From a virus, in the IMG/VR virus record IMGVR_UViG_3300045988_010060, positions 1-5,899 of that record: a stretch of 5,899 nt of DNA, one strand, 5' to 3'. The notes below the pieces were generated by a model, which made no database searches, was not told the origin of the DNA, and saw only the letters and a list, made by a program, of their open reading frames with translations. Within the stretch, counting starts at the first letter, position 1. Each line of letters begins with the position of its first letter. The position numbers were made by a program, and so were the translations under genes. Below are positions 1-5,899 of the stretch, piece by piece.

Positions 1-85
1 GGAGACGAAACAGCACTAGCAACGCCGGGGTGGTACATCGACACCAGCAAACTTCCGAGCACATACACCGAATACATGAACATGA
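1..85. repeat. Terminal redundancy: an exact 85-nt copy of 5815-5899, marking a circular genome linearised with overlap.
   Basis: Direct comparison: ggagacgaaacagcactagcaacgccggggtggtacatcgacaccagcaaacttccgagcacatacaccgaatacatgaacatga occurs at both ends of the window. Confidence 0.95.
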
Positions 86-288
86 TGAACGAGCAGCGGG
101 AAAAGTTCGACCAACTGCCGTTGAACATCAGGAACAAGTTCAACAACAACTTCAACGAATACATGGCAACCGCAGGAGAAGAAAGCTGGTTGCAAAATAT
201 GGGAATTTCGACGAAAAAAGTCACGGCAGCAGCCAACGAAAATCGTCAAAACGGAGAAAATCAAAAAGAAGGGAGCGAAAATAAATGA
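1..288 (+). CDS. VP3: Internal scaffolding protein VP3, C-terminal part. The gene wraps the circular junction and continues from 5602..5814.
   Basis: Frame 1 is open from base 1 to TGA 286-288 (GDETALATPGWYIDTSKLPSTYTEYMNMMNEQREKFDQLPLNIRNKFNNNFNEYM...SENK*). Bases 1-85 duplicate 5815-5899 in the same frame as ATG 5602. The joined gene is 501 nt (166 aa). The F-x-x-LP-x-x-IR-x-x-F-N-N block matches my recollection of gokushovirus VP3 scaffolds. Confidence 0.8.
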   Translation, partial: GDETALATPGWYIDTSKLPSTYTEYMNMMNEQREKFDQLPLNIRNKFNNNFNEYMATAGEESWLQNMGISTKKVTAAANENRQNGENQKEGSENK

Positions 289-1928
289 GCCGAAACGCGG
301 AACAGCATTTCACACAAGTACCGCACGCAGAAATCAGGCGCAGCAGCTTCAAGCGGCCTTTTAGTCTCCTGACAACTCTCAACGAAGGAGATCTTGTACC
401 GATCTACGTTGACGAAGTACTTCCCGCGGACACCTTCAGGATTGACCTGAACAGTCTGGTACGCATGAGCACACCGCTTTATCCGGTCATGGATAACTGT
501 GATATTGATTATTATATGTTCTTCGTGCCGGCACGCTTGCTCTGGGAACACTTCGAGAACCTGATGGGTCAAAACGATTCGAGCTTCTGGGCAGAAGATG
601 TAGAGTACACAACGCCGGTGACGACAGCGCCTAAAGGCGGATGGGCAAACGGAACCATTGCGGACTACTTCGGCATTCCGACCGGAGTAGAAAACCTGAA
701 AGTGAACAGTCTGCCGTTCAGAGCTTACGCGAAAATCTGGAACGAGTGGTTCAGAGACGAAAACTTACAGCAGCCTGTAACCATGAGCAAAACGGACGCA
801 ACAACGGCAGGAAGCAACACAGGAAACAAACTCACAGACGCAGAAGCAGGTGGCCTGCCGCTGAAAGTAGCAAAACACAAAGACTATTTCACATCCTGCC
901 TTCCTTCGCCGCAAAAAGGCGAAGCGGTGCAACTGCCACTAAACGGAAACGCATATATCAAGTACGCATCCGGAACCAAAGATAAAGAATATTATAAATT
1001 ACAAGACAGCAACGATAACAACAGATACGGGCTATATTTATCAGATTACAATAACTTCCAAAACGGCTCTGTGAGAATAAAGGCAACACTGGGAGAGCCA
1101 TTCATAAACATCAAAGACGATAAAACAAGAGATGACATCTATTTAGCGGCAGACCTCGGAAGCGTAACCGCAACAACCATCAACGAACTTCGCAACGCGA
1201 TTGCAGTGCAGCATATCCTCGAACGAGACGCACGAACCGGCACGAGGTACAAAGAATACCTCAAAGGCGCATGGGGTGTGACGAGTCCAGACGCTCGACT
1301 GGATAGAAGCGAGTACATCGGCGGGTGCAGAGTGCCAATCAACATCAATCAGGTAGTGCAGACGTCCAGCACCAACGAAACCAGTCCGCAAGGCAACACA
1401 GGCGCCTACAGCATGACAACCAACAGCCAACACATGTGCACCTACTCAGCAACGGAGCACGGCTTTGTCATCGGTCTGGCGTGCGTAAGAGTACAGCACA
1501 GCTATCAATACGGACTGCGAAGAATGTGGACCCGAAGCACACGATTCAGCTATTATGACCCGATGCTCGCAAACCTTGGAGAACAGGCAGTGCTGAATCA
1601 AGAAATCTATGCACAAGGCAACGAAAAAGACGAGGAAGTCTTTGGATACCAAGAGGCATGGGCAGATTACAAATACAGAACCAACGAAGTGACATGTGAA
1701 ATGCGGTCCAACTTCGCTCAGACTCTGGATGCATGGCACTACGCAGACAAGTACACCAGTCTTCCGACTCTCTCCGACACATGGATTAAAGAAGGCAAAG
1801 AAAACATTGACAGAACAATTGCAGTGCAAAGCGCAAACAGTCATCAGTTCATTTGCAACTTCTACTTCGAGCAGACGTGGACAAGAGCAATGCCGGTGTA
1901 CAACATCCCCGGCCTTGACACGATCTAA
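285..1928 (+). CDS. VP1: Major capsid protein VP1 (Microviridae F/VP1 family)
   Basis: 547-aa ORF. RBS AAGGGAG lies at 269-275. ATG 285 overlaps the VP3 stop (ATGA). Blocks HFTQVPHAEIRRSSF, GDLVPIYVDEVLPADTF, VRMSTPLYPVMDN, YYMFFVPARLLWEHF and TINELRNAIAVQHILERDARTGTRYKEYL are hallmarks of microvirus major capsid proteins as I recall them. Confidence 0.95.
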   Translation: MSRNAEQHFTQVPHAEIRRSSFKRPFSLLTTLNEGDLVPIYVDEVLPADTFRIDLNSLVRMSTPLYPVMDNCDIDYYMFFVPARLLWEHFENLMGQNDSSFWAEDVEYTTPVTTAPKGGWANGTIADYFGIPTGVENLKVNSLPFRAYAKIWNEWFRDENLQQPVTMSKTDATTAGSNTGNKLTDAEAGGLPLKVAKHKDYFTSCLPSPQKGEAVQLPLNGNAYIKYASGTKDKEYYKLQDSNDNNRYGLYLSDYNNFQNGSVRIKATLGEPFINIKDDKTRDDIYLAADLGSVTATTINELRNAIAVQHILERDARTGTRYKEYLKGAWGVTSPDARLDRSEYIGGCRVPININQVVQTSSTNETSPQGNTGAYSMTTNSQHMCTYSATEHGFVIGLACVRVQHSYQYGLRRMWTRSTRFSYYDPMLANLGEQAVLNQEIYAQGNEKDEEVFGYQEAWADYKYRTNEVTCEMRSNFAQTLDAWHYADKYTSLPTLSDTWIKEGKENIDRTIAVQSANSHQFICNFYFEQTWTRAMPVYNIPGLDTI

Positions 1929-1940
1929 GGAGACAAAAAA

Positions 1941-2906
1941 ATGCAACTGGCAGGAATCTTAAACGCAGCAACAAAGCTGCTACCAGTGATAAGCGCCGGA
2001 ATAGGCGTAGCTGGTCAAATTAAAAATTTAATATCGAGCGGTTCAGGAGCCAGTACAAACGCACAAAGCGGCTCATCTTCTAATCAGACGATAGGGACAA
2101 CATCGAGCAGCCAGACCAGCACGGGACAGACACAACAAACAACGTCACAATATGGAGGAAGCACAGGAACCAGCGAGACAATCGGCAACGTTGGAAGCCT
2201 CGGAAGCATCCTGACAAGAGCACTGGGAACCGCAACAGGCAACAACAGCGGCCTAGCTGCAAACTTTAACGCCGGACAGGCACAGACAGCAAACAACCTC
2301 CAAACAGGAAGTTGGACACTGGCAAACCTGATGAACCAGCTAAACGCAGCATGGCAAAACAAAAAATTGACTGAAGCAGCAACGACAGCAAACGCATTCA
2401 ATGCAGCAGAAGCACAAAAAAACAGAGACTGGCAAGAAAAAATGTCGAATACCAGCTATCAAAGAGCAGTTACAGACATGAAGAAAGCCGGAATCAACCC
2501 GATCTTAGCAGCACAAAACGGGGGAGCAAACACAGGATCTGGCGCAACAGCAAGCGCCGCGGGACTGCCAAACTTCACACACGCACAAGCAGCAGCGATA
2601 CCAGCAGCACATACGGCCACCATGCAAGCCATGTACGATTATGGCAACAACACAAGCCAATTCTTAAACAACGCAATGCAGACCATAAACAGCGCAAAAT
2701 CGACTAACAACTACACGGTAGCCAACTACATGGAAGGCATCATGCAAGAAGTGACTCAGACGAGTGCGCAAGGCGTTCAAAGAATGGCTCAAACGATCAA
2801 CAACAACTTCAATAACAAGGGATGGGAACACAGCAAAACAGACACGAACCAAACAGAAAAAGGAGTGTCTGGCAACATTGAAGGAAGCTACAGATCGAAA
2901 AGTTAA
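1941..2906 (+). CDS. VP2: Minor capsid / DNA pilot protein VP2
   Basis: 321-aa ORF directly after VP1. RBS TAAGGAG lies at 1926-1932, 8 nt upstream. It has a hydrophobic N-terminus (MQLAGILNAATKLLPVISAGIGVAG) and a long S/T/G/Q/N low-complexity tract. The SNTSYQRAVTDMKKAGINPILAAQ block is typical of gokushovirus VP2. Confidence 0.85.
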   Translation: MQLAGILNAATKLLPVISAGIGVAGQIKNLISSGSGASTNAQSGSSSNQTIGTTSSSQTSTGQTQQTTSQYGGSTGTSETIGNVGSLGSILTRALGTATGNNSGLAANFNAGQAQTANNLQTGSWTLANLMNQLNAAWQNKKLTEAATTANAFNAAEAQKNRDWQEKMSNTSYQRAVTDMKKAGINPILAAQNGGANTGSGATASAAGLPNFTHAQAAAIPAAHTATMQAMYDYGNNTSQFLNNAMQTINSAKSTNNYTVANYMEGIMQEVTQTSAQGVQRMAQTINNNFNNKGWEHSKTDTNQTEKGVSGNIEGSYRSKS

Positions 2907-2909
2907 CTA

Positions 2910-2937
2910 TTGACATGCGAGAAAGAAGGTGTATAAT
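2910..2937 (+). promoter_or_regulatory. Sigma70-type promoter P1 (TTGACA, 16-nt spacer, TATAAT) upstream of RHH1 and probably rep
   Basis: TTGACA at 2910-2915 and TATAAT at 2932-2937 are both exact consensus hexamers with a 16-nt spacer. They sit in the 74-nt gap between VP2 and the next ORF. Confidence 0.65.
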
Positions 2938-2960
2938 ATGGGTGTAAGAATCGAACACCC
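2928..2960. repeat. Two 13-nt phased GGTGTA units plus an inverted ACACCC copy; candidate operator at P1
   Basis: GGTGTATAAT at 2928-2937 and GGTGTAAGAA at 2941-2950 have starts 13 nt apart. GGGTGT 2940-2945 is the reverse complement of ACACCC 2955-2960 (9-nt loop). The first unit contains the -10 hexamer. Confidence 0.6.
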
Positions 2961-2980
2961 AACCTAGAAAGGGGTATACC

Positions 2981-3181
2981 ATGAAAAGCCAAGTAACAAA
3001 AAGAATAAACGTAAATTTAACTGACCGTGAACTAACGGCACTAAAATGCTTAGAACACGAAATGAAAAACAGAAACTGGAAAATGAACGCCAGCGATATA
3101 ATCAGGGAAGCAATCGTGTACTATTGCATGAAAGAAACAGGGTACACGTTCGCCAACGAATGGAAACCCAAAACAACATAA
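2981..3181 (+). CDS. Small ribbon-helix-helix (CopG/Arc/MetJ-like) DNA-binding protein, 66 aa (RHH1)
   Basis: RBS AAAGGGG lies at 2968-2974, 6 nt before the ATG. The sequence KRINVNLTDRELTALKCLEHEMKNRNWKMNASDIIREAIVYY fits the RHH pattern: a basic-then-alternating beta strand (KRINVNL), helix 1 (DRELTALKCLEHEM), then an N-A-S cap and helix 2 (SDIIREAIVYY). Confidence 0.6.
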   Translation: MKSQVTKRINVNLTDRELTALKCLEHEMKNRNWKMNASDIIREAIVYYCMKETGYTFANEWKPKTT

Positions 3182-3191
3182 ATCCATAACG

Positions 3192-3216
3192 AATTGGAAA
3201 AAATTGCAAAAAATTG
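3192..3216. repeat. AATTG repeated three times at exact 10-nt phase (two copies as AAAAAATTG)
   Basis: AATTG occurs at 3192-3196, 3202-3206 and 3212-3216. AAAAAATTG occurs at 3198-3206 and 3208-3216. These are helically phased A-tracts lying 5 nt upstream of the stem-loop. Confidence 0.6.
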
Positions 3217-3220
3217 TGTC

Positions 3221-3261
3221 AGTGGGCCCCAATAACGTCAAGAGGGTTATTGGGGCCCACT
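3221..3261. promoter_or_regulatory. Perfect 16-bp stem-loop (9-nt loop GTCAAGAGG) between RHH1 and rep; function unknown (origin, attenuator or RNA element)
   Basis: AGTGGGCCCCAATAAC 3221-3236 is the exact reverse complement of GTTATTGGGGCCCACT 3246-3261. No T-run follows on the + strand, so it is not a canonical intrinsic terminator. Confidence 0.85.
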
Positions 3262-3284
3262 AAGGGAAGGTGCAACTAAAACAA

Positions 3285-4403
3285 ATGTCATGTACAAAAC
3301 CACTCGTAAGATTTAGTGACGGAGAAGTAACAAGCCTTAAAAGATACCTAGAATATGGCAGAAGATACAAATCAACATTCTACATGGGAGATGGACCATA
3401 CTTAGACGAATCAGCCGAAAAAAAACTGTTGAGACAAATCAAAGAAGAAGGCTGCACACTCTTACCATGCGGACACTGTGCAGCGTGTAAGCTGACAGCA
3501 TCGAGCAGTTGGGCAAACAGAATGGAAATGGAATTACCTTACCATAAAAACGCATGGTTCCTAACTCTGACATACGATGACGAGCACGTGCCTTGGAGCT
3601 ACAACAACGGTTTAGGAATCAATAAATGGACCGGAGAAGTGGAAGTAGAAAACTTAACTCTTAATTATAAAGATATGCAAGACTTTTGGAAAAGGCTAAG
3701 AAGATACAGAGAATACCACAACATAGACGATGGGCAACTGATGTACTTTCAAGCCGGAGAATACGGAGGTAAAACACACAGACCGCACTATCATGCAATA
3801 GTGTATGATCTGAACATTAAAAAAGAGGACCTAAAAGAATACAAAAGAAAGAACGGTATTGTGTATTATAATTGCGACTGGATAACAAAAATCTGGGGAA
3901 ACGGCCACGTAGTTATAACAGAAGCGAGCTGGAAAGCATTTGCATACACAGCAAGATACACCACAAAAAAGGTATATGGCAGCGAAAGCAAAAAATACTA
4001 CTCAGACATGGGAATCTTACCGGAAAAGTGCATGATGAGCAAAAACCCGGCAATCGGTATGAAGTACTACGAGGAGCACAAAAACGAAATCTACAAGAAA
4101 GACAGCATTCAACTAAAAAACGGCAGACGCTGCAAGCCACCAAGATACTTTGATAAGCTCTTCGATCTGGAACACAGCCAAAGCGGACCACTCAGCAAAG
4201 CAGAAAGCGAAGAAATCGAAGAAACAACAGAAAAAGCCGAATCCGAAGAACTGAAAGCCATCAAACGCGAAAGGCGAAGAATTGCGAATGATGCACTATT
4301 TGCTCAGCTCAAACAGACCGGCCTAACCATGCAAGAATATTATAACCTGAAAGACAAAAAAATGCAAGAACGCATAAAAAAACTTATCAGGGAAGAAATC
4401 TAG
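3285..4403 (+). CDS. VP4: Rolling-circle replication initiator VP4 (HUH superfamily Rep)
   Basis: The ORF track opens at GTG 3270, but ATG 3285 gives MSCTKPLVRF, the usual M-x-C-x-x-P style N-terminus. A Cys cluster CGHCAACK lies at 3468-3491. Motif I is FLTLTY (3558-3575), motif II is HYHAIVY (3786-3806) and motif III is YTARYTTKK with two Tyr (3945-3971). Stop TAG is at 4401-4403. Confidence 0.9.
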   Translation: MSCTKPLVRFSDGEVTSLKRYLEYGRRYKSTFYMGDGPYLDESAEKKLLRQIKEEGCTLLPCGHCAACKLTASSSWANRMEMELPYHKNAWFLTLTYDDEHVPWSYNNGLGINKWTGEVEVENLTLNYKDMQDFWKRLRRYREYHNIDDGQLMYFQAGEYGGKTHRPHYHAIVYDLNIKKEDLKEYKRKNGIVYYNCDWITKIWGNGHVVITEASWKAFAYTARYTTKKVYGSESKKYYSDMGILPEKCMMSKNPAIGMKYYEEHKNEIYKKDSIQLKNGRRCKPPRYFDKLFDLEHSQSGPLSKAESEEIEETTEKAESEELKAIKRERRRIANDALFAQLKQTGLTMQEYYNLKDKKMQERIKKLIREEI

Positions 4404-4470
4404 CGGCCACGGCGCGCGGAAAGCAGCACACAAGAAAAACGGCATAAAGAACGGCCAATAAAGGGAAGAC

Positions 4471-4504
4471 AGGGCGACGCGATCAGATAAGATTGCGTCG
4501 CCCT
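4471..4504. other. GC-rich hairpin: 10 perfect bp, extendable to 14 bp, with a 6-nt loop
   Basis: AGGGCGACGC 4471-4480 pairs with GCGTCGCCCT 4495-4504. Inner GATC 4481-4484 pairs with GATT 4491-4494 (one G-T wobble). The loop is AGATAA. Confidence 0.75.
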
Positions 4505-4513
4505 CTATTCGTC

Positions 4514-4534
4514 CGGCGCGGGGCAGCCGCGCCG
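4514..4534. other. Second GC-rich hairpin (8 bp, 5-nt loop)
   Basis: CGGCGCGG 4514-4521 pairs with CCGCGCCG 4527-4534; the loop is GGCAG. It is followed by the palindrome CCGATCGG at 4532-4539. Confidence 0.65.
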
Positions 4535-4562
4535 ATCGGGCGACCTCTGGGTAAAAAAGTGC

Positions 4563-4591
4563 TTGACAAGTGTATAATTTAGGTGTATAAT
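4563..4591 (+). promoter_or_regulatory. Perfect-consensus sigma70 promoter P2 (TTGACA, 17-nt spacer, TATAAT)
   Basis: TTGACA at 4563-4568 and TATAAT at 4586-4591 are separated by exactly 17 nt. The promoter is 28 nt upstream of ATG 4619. Confidence 0.75.
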
Positions 4592-4621
4592 AAAGGTGTA
4601 GAAAGGATGGTGTAAACCATG
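4569..4621 (+). repeat. Four tandem 13/14-nt units with an R-GTGTA-(T)AA core; candidate iterated operator
   Basis: The units are aGTGTATAATtta (4569-4581), gGTGTATAATaaa (4582-4594), gGTGTAgAAaggat (4595-4608) and gGTGTAaAccatg (4609-4621). Unit 2 carries the -10 hexamer. Unit 4 covers the start codon of the 84-aa ORF. Confidence 0.7.
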
Positions 4622-4873
4622 AAAGATTATGAAGAACTGAAACTGACCACAGAAGGCAATCATGAAAGTATACCAAACGATGCAGCATGGTGTCTATACG
4701 ACGGCGGATGGAGAAAAGAAGACTGGGAACTATTCAAAAAAACCGAAACCACAAAAGACCCAGAAGAAGAATTCAAGTGGTACCTAGACCCAGATAATGA
4801 ATACTGGGACAAAAGAGAATATGAAGAAGCACTAGAAATGTGCGAAAACATCGTAAAAGAAAGAGAACAATAA
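4619..4873 (+). CDS. Hypothetical acidic, Trp-rich 84-aa protein (accessory, moron-like)
   Basis: The ORF lies directly between P2 and a strong intrinsic terminator. By my count it has 26 Asp/Glu against 12 Lys/Arg (net about -14) and 5 Trp. I recognise no family. Confidence 0.7.
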   Translation: MKDYEELKLTTEGNHESIPNDAAWCLYDGGWRKEDWELFKKTETTKDPEEEFKWYLDPDNEYWDKREYEEALEMCENIVKEREQ

Positions 4874-4877
4874 CAAT

Positions 4878-4924
4878 AAAAACGTAAGAGTGAACAAAAC
4901 CACTCTTGCGTTTTTTTTTTTTTT
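4878..4924 (+). terminator. Rho-independent terminator (10-bp stem, 8-nt loop, T14 tail)
   Basis: CGTAAGAGTG 4883-4892 pairs with CACTCTTGCG 4901-4910 (one G-U wobble). The loop is AACAAAAC. Fourteen consecutive T follow at 4911-4924. A5 at 4878-4882 can extend the stem. Confidence 0.85.
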
Positions 4925-4932
4925 GGTAAAAT
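4924..4932 (+). promoter_or_regulatory. Candidate extended -10 promoter P3 (TGnTAAAAT) for the ORF40-J-RHH2-VP5-VP3-VP1-VP2 block
   Basis: TGGTAAAAT at 4924-4932 fits TGnTAnnnT. The T14 tract lies upstream and AGGAGG at 4941-4946 lies just downstream. There is no good -35 (TTGCGT 4906-4911 with a 15-nt spacer). Confidence 0.35.
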
Positions 4933-4951
4933 CAAAGAAAAGGAGGTAAAC

Positions 4952-5074
4952 ATGAAGCTGAAAGAAATCAAAGAAATGATTGAACACCTGAAAAAGATCC
5001 TGAACACGCTGGATAAAATCTATCATATCCTGAATCAGGACGAAGACAAGGAGGAAAACAATGACACACCGTAA
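4952..5074 (+). CDS. Hypothetical 40-aa coiled-coil-like peptide with an acidic tail
   Basis: RBS AGGAGG at 4941-4946 lies 5 nt before the ATG. The product is MKLKEIKEMIEHLKKILNTLDKIYHILNQDEDKEENNDTP. It falls below the ORF-track length cutoff. Hydrophobic residues follow a 3-4-3-4 spacing. Confidence 0.5.
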   Translation: MKLKEIKEMIEHLKKILNTLDKIYHILNQDEDKEENNDTP

Positions 5075-5180
5075 GAGCGTAAATCCGAAGAAGGACCAGA
5101 GAATCTTCACCAACACAGCGAAGAAGACCAAAAAAATCAACGTGAACCCGAAGCCGTCACGCGGCGGCATCCGGCTGTGA
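5061..5180 (+). CDS. Small basic DNA-binding/packaging peptide (gokushovirus ORF8-like, phiX J analogue), 39 aa
   Basis: RBS AAGGAGG at 5048-5054 lies 6 nt before the ATG. The product is MTHRKSVNPKKDQRIFTNTAKKTKKINVNPKPSRGGIRL, with 12 Lys/Arg and 1 Asp. The F-x-x-TA core and C-terminal RGG-x-RL match my memory of this peptide family. Confidence 0.7.
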   Translation: MTHRKSVNPKKDQRIFTNTAKKTKKINVNPKPSRGGIRL

Positions 5181-5380
5181 AGCGGGTGAAGGACCTCGAA
5201 AGCTTTGGAGTGAGCGTAAAACTAGGCTACAAAGAAATGATGCTGGTGGACGAACTTCAAAAGCTGATTGAGGAAGAGACAAGAGAAAAAATAAGCGCTG
5301 GAAAAATCCTCAGAGCGCTCATCAAAGAAGGATTAAAAAACAGCCAAGCAGTAAGAGAGGAGCTTGAAAATGATTTATGA
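5177..5380 (+). CDS. Second small ribbon-helix-helix-like protein, 67 aa (RHH2); start codon uncertain
   Basis: GTG 5177 overlaps the upstream stop (GTGA). FGVSVKLGYKEMMLVDELQKLIEEETREKISAGKILRALIKEGL fits a strand (VSVKL), helix 1 (KEMMLVDELQKLIEEE) and helix 2 (AGKILRALIKEGL). There is no strong RBS. GTG 5186 is an alternative start. Confidence 0.5.
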   Translation: MKRVKDLESFGVSVKLGYKEMMLVDELQKLIEEETREKISAGKILRALIKEGLKNSQAVREELENDL

Positions 5381-5621
5381 CATCTACGCAATCAAAGACG
5401 AACTGGCCGGAACCTTCGGCAACCTGATGATTATGCTCGACAAGGTAGCAGAACGGAACTTCAAGTGGATCATGCTTGAAAGCGAAAAAGCAGACTGCGA
5501 CGACCGCAGGATCTACTACATGGGCAAATATGACAACGAGAGCGGCGCGATCTACGCAGAGCAGCCGAAACTCGTCTACAATCTGGAAGAGGAAAAGAAA
5601 AATGCCAAAGAGAATCTTTAA
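5370..5621 (+). CDS. VP5: VP5-like non-structural protein, 83 aa
   Basis: RBS GAGGAG at 5356-5361 lies 8 nt before ATG 5370 (the track starts at TTG 5364). MIYDIYAIKDELAGTFGNLMIMLDKVAERNFK...RRIYYMGKYDNESGAIY fits the Y-x-I-x-D...F...A-x-R-x-F...G-x-(F/Y)-D-x-E-(T/S)-G pattern I recall for gokushovirus ORF5/VP5. It sits in the conserved position just before VP3. Confidence 0.6.
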   Translation: MIYDIYAIKDELAGTFGNLMIMLDKVAERNFKWIMLESEKADCDDRRIYYMGKYDNESGAIYAEQPKLVYNLEEEKKNAKENL

Positions 5622-5899
5622 GCCCTTTGAAGATGAAAAACCGGAAGCAAAAGAAAACTGCTGCGGAAACCGTATGGAACCGCAGTACGCCGAACGATAC
5701 GACGAAAACGGCAAAGCCTACCTTGAAAAGGTCGGAGAGGTGGACACTTACGAAAAAATCCAGAGTTACCGGGATGAATGCGACGTAATGGCAATCCTGA
5801 GCAGATACGCAGCAGGAGACGAAACAGCACTAGCAACGCCGGGGTGGTACATCGACACCAGCAAACTTCCGAGCACATACACCGAATACATGAACATGA
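5602..5899 (+). CDS. VP3: Internal scaffolding protein VP3, N-terminal part; runs off the window end and continues at base 86 (equivalently base 1 follows 5814)
   Basis: RBS GAGGA at 5589-5593 lies 8 nt before ATG 5602. My manual translation is MPKRIFKPFEDEKPEAKENCCGNRMEPQYAERYDENGKAYLEKVGEVDTYEKIQSYRDECDVMAILSRYAAGDETALATPGWY..., with no stop before the window end. It is absent from the ORF track only because it is open-ended. Confidence 0.8.
   Translation, partial: MPKRIFKPFEDEKPEAKENCCGNRMEPQYAERYDENGKAYLEKVGEVDTYEKIQSYRDECDVMAILSRYAAGDETALATPGWYIDTSKLPSTYTEYMNM
5815..5899. repeat. Terminal redundancy: an exact copy of 1-85
   Basis: Identical 85-nt string at both window ends. Confidence 0.95.

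Follow-up and report, generated by a model that had tools for sequence, protein, structure and literature searches.

The 5,899-nt stretch of viral DNA analysed here (IMG/VR record IMGVR_UViG_3300045988_010060, positions 1 to 5,899; hereafter the window) represents a complete and circular gokushovirus genome of 5814 nt, since bases 1-85 recur exactly at positions 5815-5899, and all its genes are located on the plus strand. Between the genes for the pilot protein VP2 (1941-2906) and the HUH replication initiator Rep (3270/3285-4403) lies an open reading frame (ORF) of 66 amino acids (aa) with an ATG start (2981-3181), which probably encodes a ribbon-helix-helix (RHH) DNA-binding protein. The ORF is preceded by a consensus promoter (P1) and followed by a hairpin, and a second consensus promoter (P2), which carries repeats of the same type as those at P1, is located downstream of rep. 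We consider the 66-aa protein a candidate autorepressor of these two promoters.

The 66-aa gene and the predicted fold of its product

The start codon of the 66-aa gene is preceded by the Shine-Dalgarno sequence AAAGGGG (2968-2974), where the relatives have TAGGAGG or AAAGGGG. Homologues of the protein form 38 clusters with 66-97% identity, all on contigs of at most 5.9 kb, and an exhaustive HMMER search of 1.84 billion proteins identified 36 representatives of the wider family; none of the contigs bearing the gene exceeds 7.7 kb. The proportion of nonsynonymous differences (pN) ranges between 0.12 and 0.32 against saturated synonymous differences (pS) of 0.66-0.92, and the ORF is a real gene under strong purifying selection. 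The order VP2-ORF-Rep is identical in all 64 related genomes examined (64/64), for which the best explanation is that the gene belongs to the core of one gut gokushovirus clade. In the more distant chicken microvirus MN379640, which lacks the RHH gene, the VP2-Rep gap holds only a hairpin, so that "insertion" is a fair term for the module and the original prediction of an ORF inserted between VP2 and rep holds. That the ORF should lie directly upstream of rep is correct insofar as rep is the next gene, with a conserved 16-bp hairpin (3221-3261) sitting in between. The gene has been systematically overlooked in public annotation: it is not annotated in GenBank KX513873, MG945186 and MG945569, of which KX513873 (Human gut gokushovirus SH-CHD10) is the closest named relative of the window, and the exact protein is named "hypothetical protein" wherever the sources name it.

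The family diverges down to approximately 31-35% identity and the strand (KR.N.NLT) and the beginning of helix B (SDIIR.AI) are kept, where part of the strand motif had been demanded by the sequence filter; helix A, the loop and the tail are variable. One relative (L065, 3961-4376) carries two RHH-like ORFs in tandem, and a 125-aa database member (P0049) appears to be a fusion of two RHH-like modules.

The 66-aa protein consists of an arm (residues 1-7), a strand (8-14, KRINVNLT), helix A (15-30), an N36-A37-S38 cap, helix B (37-53) and the conserved tail GYTFANEWKPK. AlphaFold2, using a 39-sequence alignment, predicted an extended segment at residues 8-14 and helices at 15-30 and 37-53, with a mean predicted local distance difference test score (pLDDT) of 81 and values above 90 at residues 11-40. 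The model is a single chain in which the strand appears as extended coil, and because the RHH partner chain is absent from it the strand cannot be scored as sheet. Using Foldseek against the PDB, approximately 9 of 24 matches were RHH or antitoxin proteins (NikR, AtaR, Reg576, MazE, Arc, ParD2 and CdbA); against viral models, RHH proteins from phages of Arthrobacter and Streptomyces are among the named matches, and the sole strong match is a 70-aa homologue without a name. At the sequence level, 16 of the 36 family members match Pfam RHH_1 (PF01402) below threshold (best 1.1e-4), and NCBIfam gave weak matches to the ORF56 plasmid copy-control family (five family members, best 1e-4) and to aCcr1, both of which we take to be RHH families. 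Comparison of the family profile with CopG, Arc, Mnt, NikR-N, ParG-C, ParD and omega using hhalign gave a probability of 77.5% (E=1.9e-5), a figure to be read with some caution as the RHH reference sequences had been entered by hand; the strand, helix A, the turn and helix B were all four aligned with those of the classical RHH proteins. A helical control protein of about the same length from the same genome, ORF67 (approximately 67 aa), gave 1-2% in hhalign and no RHH structural matches. No one of these tests is decisive, all lines agree, and we conclude that the 66-aa protein is probably an RHH DNA-binding protein.

What speaks against this assignment, apart from the origin of the reference sequences, is that every Foldseek match in the PDB has an E-value of at least 1.2, that the window protein and the close-family profile gave nothing significant when searched against Pfam, PHROGs and the PDB, and that dimerisation of the 66-aa protein is a prediction with a monomer model behind it. 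For the window protein alone the best Pfam match was DUF5323 (E=0.1), with no match to RHH_1 and the curated threshold not reached, and the wider-family profile matched only TTHA0139 (E=0.026) and ParD (0.72). As the protein stays below the sequence threshold, we refrain from assigning it to the CopG family. The RHH layout described in the original prediction, i.e. a strand, two helices and an N-A-S cap, is present and backed by several independent in silico lines of weak to moderate strength, including the RHH-enriched matches of the monomer model; DNA binding by the protein is a prediction.

Promoters, shared repeats and the hairpin before rep

P1 (TTGACA-16-TATAAT, 2910-2937) is a sigma70/sigmaA-type promoter that matches the consensus at 12 of 12 positions, with its -35 element at 2910-2915 and its -10 element at 2932-2937. 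Perfect TTGACA-N16-18-TATAAT sites occur exactly twice in the window, as P1 and P2, and in none of 200 shuffled sequences; the -35 and -10 elements of P1 are kept in all 43 distinct relatives that were aligned. The consensus promoter of the original prediction is therefore real. Overlapping the -10 element and the predicted +1 are two direct GGTGTA repeats on the plus strand (2928-2933 and 2941-2946), 13 nt apart, which constitute a candidate operator. The hexamer GGTGTA is present ten times in the window, where 1.45 copies are expected, and five of the ten are within P1 or P2. In the alignment of the 43 distinct P1 sequences 34 columns are invariant, including GGTGTATA, the GGTG before the -10 element and the GTGTA at +1. 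The GGTG before the -10 element of P1, the copy in the P2 spacer and the copy at +1 are invariant or nearly so, at positions that are dispensable for RNA polymerase. The conservation of the promoter stands out because the VP2 ends differ, the RHH protein diverges to the above-mentioned identities and synonymous sites are saturated. Reading the GGTG before the -10 element as an extended -10 (TGn) element was ruled out, as its register is wrong.

P2 (TTGACA-17-TATAAT, 4563-4591, plus strand) is conserved in the relatives, and the non-coding stretch around it is 87% identical to KX513873. It carries four direct rGTGTA repeats, which start at 4569, 4582, 4595 and 4609 (the last ending at 4614) with spacings of 13, 13 and 14 nt, such that the first is placed in the spacer just after the -35 element, the second at the -10 element, the third at +1 and the fourth in the leader; the first three are conserved across the relatives, spacer positions included. 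P1 and P2 moreover have in common a 20-nt block (repeat family D2) and similar leaders (D8).

The gene predicted to be expressed from P2 encodes ORF84 (4619-4873, plus strand), which has no Pfam or PHROG assignment and whose homologues form only five clusters in 5.8 billion proteins. This slot is hypervariable: in the relatives it is occupied by at least eight unrelated small proteins, mostly acidic ORFs of approximately 50-85 aa, and ORF84 belongs to the commonest group, characterised by the motif ALYDGGWR. In its organisation the slot resembles a moron cassette, and we regard it as a candidate locus for anti-defence or host takeover. It is closed by a strong intrinsic terminator on the plus strand, composed of a stem (4878-4915) and a T-run, which passes straight into TGGTAAAAT (4924-4932, plus strand), a candidate extended -10 promoter (P3) of textbook sequence that precedes the J-like, VP5, VP3, VP1 and VP2 genes. 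The terminator-P3 unit, or its TGcTAAAAT variant, is conserved clade-wide, and P3 is free of GGTGTA repeats. Judged by these elements the genome looks like three transcription units, with repeats in the first two only. Beyond the original prediction, P2 thus has the operator-like repeats of P1 and is positioned to drive a hypervariable gene, and the module is found throughout the clade.

The RHH gene and the phased repeats occur together in 64 of 64 genomes and both are absent in 27 of 27 microviruses without the RHH gene (Rep identity at most 42%); among the genomes retrieved, every member of the clade carries the gene. A distant family member (P0072, on L053/L054), with the Arc-like strand KQVQVRLT (Q-x-Q-x-R), has a TTGACA promoter with ATCAG/CTGAT instead of GGTGTA; L053 and L054 are short contigs whose microviral nature is not obvious. 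On the minus strand of another contig (L027, 1112-1150) the 13-mer GGTGTATAATAAA is present three times in tandem; this is a 4.6-kb viral contig without a match to VP1, Rep or RHH.

An inverted repeat, GGGTGT(N9)ACACCC (2939-2961, plus strand; inverted ACACCC arm at 2955-2960), lies where the P1 transcript is predicted to start and might be a stem-loop in the 5' untranslated region and/or a palindromic half-operator. The segment 2938-2985 folds as RNA with -12.9 kcal/mol. In the alignment 90% of the cells of the inverted repeat are paired, and one pair covaries (GC in 16, AU in 15 and GU in 12 sequences) with the others being invariant.

The hairpin that separates the stop codon of the RHH gene from the Shine-Dalgarno sequence of rep (3221-3261) is a perfect 16-bp stem with the conserved loop (G/A)TCAAGAGG. 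Compensatory changes were detected in 14 of its 16 pairs, 97.3% of the cells are paired, none of 500 shuffles equals it, and its predicted stability is -31.5 kcal/mol as RNA and -19.2 kcal/mol as DNA. Its 5' flank is the box TTGTGTCA (3214-3221, plus strand), with no variation at seven of its eight columns and more than 90% conservation at the remaining one (38 sequences); the ribosome site of rep follows the hairpin at a distance of three bases. Since the hairpin has no U-tract it is not a canonical terminator; an intrinsic terminator was rejected also for the other strand, where the T-run is neither adjacent nor conserved. The promoter scan found no promoter for rep in the RHH-rep gap, and transcription of rep by read-through from P1 is the simplest reading, which makes the co-transcription of the two genes plausible. 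The hairpin itself could be an attenuator, a mask on the ribosome site of rep, an element of a replication origin of the single-stranded DNA, or an sso-like element. CTCTTGAT, to which the loop is reverse-complementary, bears a loose likeness to ACTTGATA, the core of the phiX174 origin, and was rejected as such because it is on the wrong strand and the match is limited to a 6-mer. The minus strand has weak promoter-like sites at 3241-3213 and at 3692-3664, and an antisense RNA against the 5' region of rep is conceivable. The latter, inside rep, matches at 10 of 12 positions (TTTCCA-17-TATAAT) and may be incidental because it lies within the conserved coding motif YKDMQDFW.

As regards the other genes, VP1, the major capsid protein, is encoded at 285-1928 (Phage_F, E=1e-165), and Rep/VP4 at 3285-4403 (REP_ORF2-G2P, E=5.6e-14; phrog_942, E=6.8e-98). 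The likely start of Rep is the ATG at 3285 (MSCTKP...), in keeping with relatives that begin with MSCT or MGCT; the ORF finder start, GTG at 3270, falls in the Shine-Dalgarno sequence GGGAAGGTG (3263-3271). A basic J-like protein (5061-5180, phrog_10695) and a VP5-like protein (5364-5621, Phage_ORF5) follow, and the gene for the scaffold protein VP3 runs across the junction of the record's two ends as far as position 288. A second accessory gene, ORF67 (5177-5380, plus strand), is present in only three of 57 relatives among the loci compared; its 72 clusters of homologues in a large database are all on small contigs (at most 7.7 kb), and its start codon, GTG, shares bases with the J-like stop codon (GTGA). 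It has no family assignment. From its sequence pattern we had suspected a second RHH protein, which is ruled out by the above hhalign and structural searches and by its three-helix model. Just 3' of the rep stop codon there are two GC-rich hairpins (4465-4484/4491-4510 and approximately 4514-4534), neither with a T-run; the stretch that holds both (4440-4560) folds as DNA with -32 kcal/mol (z = -4.2), and relatives such as L051 carry comparable GC-rich palindromes at this position. An Rfam scan of the window gave no known RNA.

A candidate autorepressor circuit and rival readings

We propose, with moderate confidence, that the 66-aa protein is an autorepressor of two early promoters, similar to CopG/RepB or to Arc at Pant. 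The model that we infer, comprising dimerisation, repeat binding, repression, read-through into rep and an early/late logic, would operate as follows. The incoming single-stranded DNA would be converted into the double-stranded replicative form, on which the host RNA polymerase would fire at P1 and P2. The P1 transcript would carry the 5' stem-loop and the RHH gene, followed by rep through read-through of the 3221-3261 hairpin, and the P2 transcript would be short, encode the variable accessory protein and stop at the terminator. As RHH dimers build up, their beta-ribbon would bind the 13-nt-phased rGTGTA repeats over the -10/+1 regions of both promoters, with R8, N10 and N12 contacting bases as predicted from the alignment to Arc and CopG, and the bound protein would block RNA polymerase at P1 and P2. 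As a result the levels of RHH protein and Rep would be under negative feedback and the early accessory gene would be shut off, and the repeat-free extended -10 promoter P3 would go on expressing the structural genes.

In favour of this model are the enrichment of GGTGTA at two perfect promoters, the conservation of the strand and the beginning of helix B in a diverging protein family, the joint occurrence of gene and phased repeats, the distant member P0072, in which a different strand goes with different repeats, and the lack of repeats at P3. Several points weigh against it. Binding of the 66-aa protein to the repeats is predicted from sequence, and members in which N12 has changed to Y or F retain GGTGTA. 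The well-studied RHH operators have a subsite spacing of 7-11 bp, and the 13 bp seen here is longer. The co-occurrence of the gene and the repeats compares one clade with outgroups and therefore possibly reflects a single evolutionary event. Part of the P1 conservation may be due to a 5' mRNA stem-loop and not to an operator; the G-U pairs of the inverted arm, present in 12 sequences, fit a stem in RNA or single-stranded DNA better than a protein palindrome. Finally, the hairpin may stop transcription before rep.

Among other explanations, it is conceivable, though we regard it as unlikely, that the protein acts in replication as an adaptor, instead of or besides being a repressor, with the RHH domain anchored at GGTGTA and/or at the TTGTGTCA box and the tail recruiting a replication factor of the host or the phage, in likeness to the TraY/TrwA-type RHH helpers of HUH relaxases or to the tails of SSB (which binds single-stranded DNA) that recruit PriA. 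The neighbours of the gene are always rep, which encodes the HUH protein, and a hairpin whose loop is conserved and whose flank is nearly invariant, and the segment after helix B acts as a swappable module: nine of 117 distinct members (L012, L013, L032, L034, P0052, P0053, P0055, P0056 and P0057) end with acidic residues followed by LPF or LPY (EEEDLPF, DDDDLPY, NEDLPF, EDELPF, DDNLPF and PDDLPF), reached through linkers that are very different in length and sequence, and the subfamily of the window has a conserved tail of its own, FANEWK. The acidic ends match the C-terminal tip of SSB, which reads DDDIPF in the E. coli protein and DDDLPF in SsbA of S. aureus (PMC5531588; PMC5872125). Given these varied tails on the family members, the tail resembles an exchangeable peptide for interactions, carried by a domain that is anchored to DNA beside Rep and a possible origin hairpin. 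The window protein, however, has no LPF tip, the sole repeated motif is at the two promoters, approximately 280 nt from the hairpin, and the TTGTGTCA box agrees with the repeat in GTGT alone; furthermore, microvirus Rep proteins are not known to depend on accessory proteins. In an elaborated form, which we find distinctly doubtful, the RHH protein would be a DNA-anchored adaptor with interchangeable C-terminal peptides (the acidic-LPF mimic of the SSB tip, or FANEWK) that brings host replication or repair factors to specific sites of the replicative form and couples the shut-off of P1 and P2 to replication. If true, such an adaptor would capture host factors in a way that is undescribed among single-stranded DNA phages.

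It seems rather improbable, too, that the gene encodes a small protein without sequence-specific binding to phage DNA, for example an antitoxin-like protein or anti-defence decoy, and that GGTGTA represents cis features of strong promoters and of mRNA leaders (a stabilising 5' stem-loop) that derive from a promoter duplication. Type II antitoxins often contain RHH domains, and the structural matches include ParD, AtaR and MazE-type chains, but the 5.8-kb genome offers no toxin partner, the neighbours of the gene being VP2 and Rep and no ORF being toxin-like; in addition, the best-kept residues are those with which RHH proteins touch DNA and not those of a toxin-binding tail. P1 and P2 do resemble paralogous copies (families D2 and D8) and the inverted repeat of P1 behaves like a stem in RNA or single-stranded DNA with G-U intermediates, while the repeat copies in the P2 spacer have no known role in a promoter or leader. 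The 19-mer GGTGTATAATAAAGGTGTA is found in promoter-like contexts of unrelated Firmicutes and phages; its 11 matches, in unrelated loci of Firmicutes and metagenome-assembled genomes and none in a microvirus, are however close to chance, as by our estimate approximately four or more are expected in 596 Gb. We consider it very unlikely that the protein acts as an immunity repressor in a carrier state or in pseudolysogeny, quieting the resident replicative form and barring superinfecting relatives with the same operators. The candidate operators are almost identical clade-wide, such that one resident repressor could silence incoming relatives, and gokushoviruses are able to persist cytoplasmically and to render their host immune to superinfection (PMC7062461). 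On the other hand, P3 lacks the repeats and the virion genes would therefore escape silencing, and no sequence feature separates immunity from simple autoregulation. Lysogeny, or the carrier state that had been suggested in the original prediction, found no support: searches of 185,579 species genomes with peptide and DNA patterns detected no integrated copy, the peptide patterns matching no relative either, no dif-like site was found, and all contigs are phage-sized (at most 7.7 kb). A carrier state in episomal form is still conceivable.

Meaning and comparison with known systems

If the preferred reading as an autorepressor is correct, the 66-aa protein is probably the first known case of a dedicated transcription regulator among these phages. 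RHH repressors beside plasmid rep genes and RHH repressors in phages are classical, and what is new is the microvirus setting. The view that microviruses lack dedicated regulators agrees with the literature searched, in which subscription journals were thinly covered and RHH, CopG or Arc are not mentioned in connection with microviruses: a global microvirus survey from 2022 has no regulators and lists methyltransferase and lysis genes as the only accessory genes, and comparative papers from 2011 and 2012 mention no regulators. Microviruses rank among the most abundant phages of the gut virome and are viewed as minimal machines without regulators of their own. If the model is true, genomes of 5.8 kb run a small circuit in which the early genes, i.e. 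rep and a fast-evolving accessory gene, are feedback-controlled with the structural genes outside, and the compact promoter/operator pair would be usable as a part in synthetic biology. The hypervariable P2 slot is an obvious place to search for anti-defence or host-takeover proteins, and the SSB-tip-like tails would, if functional, tie the module to the host replication machinery. We consider the P1/P2 regulon, the P2 slot and the SSB-like tails most worth experiments.

Among known phage regulators, Arc and Mnt of phage P22 (immI) are RHH repressors of approximately 53 to 82 aa that bind over the core of strong early promoters. Arc is among the structural matches of the 66-aa protein, and Q9, N11 and R13 of Arc align with R8, N10 and N12. 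Arc and Mnt belong to antirepressor control in a temperate double-stranded DNA phage, have no link to rep and use 21-bp palindromes as operators, whereas the gene studied here sits beside rep. A further candidate likeness is to omega of pSM19035 and ORF56 of the Sulfolobus plasmid pRN1, where RHH proteins act in copy-number control on arrays of short repeats, direct or inverted, at several promoters of a single replicon; the heptads of omega abut at a 7-bp spacing, in contrast to the 13 bp between the present repeats, and the window lacks a partition or toxin-antitoxin regulon.

The acidic LPF/LPY at the extreme C terminus of the nine family members is similar to the SSB tip, a hub peptide for PriA, chi, RecQ and others (PMC5872125, PMC5531588), with the differences that the tip would here be carried by a predicted double-stranded DNA-binding RHH domain and not by an OB fold, and that the protein of the window is without it. 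Compared with the RHH relaxosome and origin proteins TraY, TrwA and NikA, whose binding sites adjoin the nick site of the HUH enzyme, the hairpin and the TTGTGTCA box adjoin the gene, with GGTGTA being found at the promoters and not at the hairpin.

In the plasmid pMV158, copG and repB are transcribed together from Pcr under repression by CopG (PMC2724298). As in the window, the gene for a small RHH protein (45 aa compared to 66 aa) is located immediately upstream of that for a HUH rolling-circle initiator, with one strong promoter ahead, which a candidate operator overlaps in the present case; also the strand patterns are alike (KRLTITLS in CopG and KRINVNLT here). The operator of pMV158 is a 13-bp pseudosymmetric element at -35, whereas the repeats in the window are direct, 13 nt apart and placed over -10/+1, and a second repeat-bearing promoter here precedes a variable gene. 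Other differences are that the window protein has no significant sequence match to CopG, that a covarying 16-bp hairpin parts the two genes, that no antisense RNA component was identified in the window, and that the element is a lytic-type single-stranded DNA phage and not a plasmid. Nevertheless, the promoter-RHH-rep order, which is the same in 64 of 64 genomes, resembles the copG-repB cassette of pMV158, as originally predicted.

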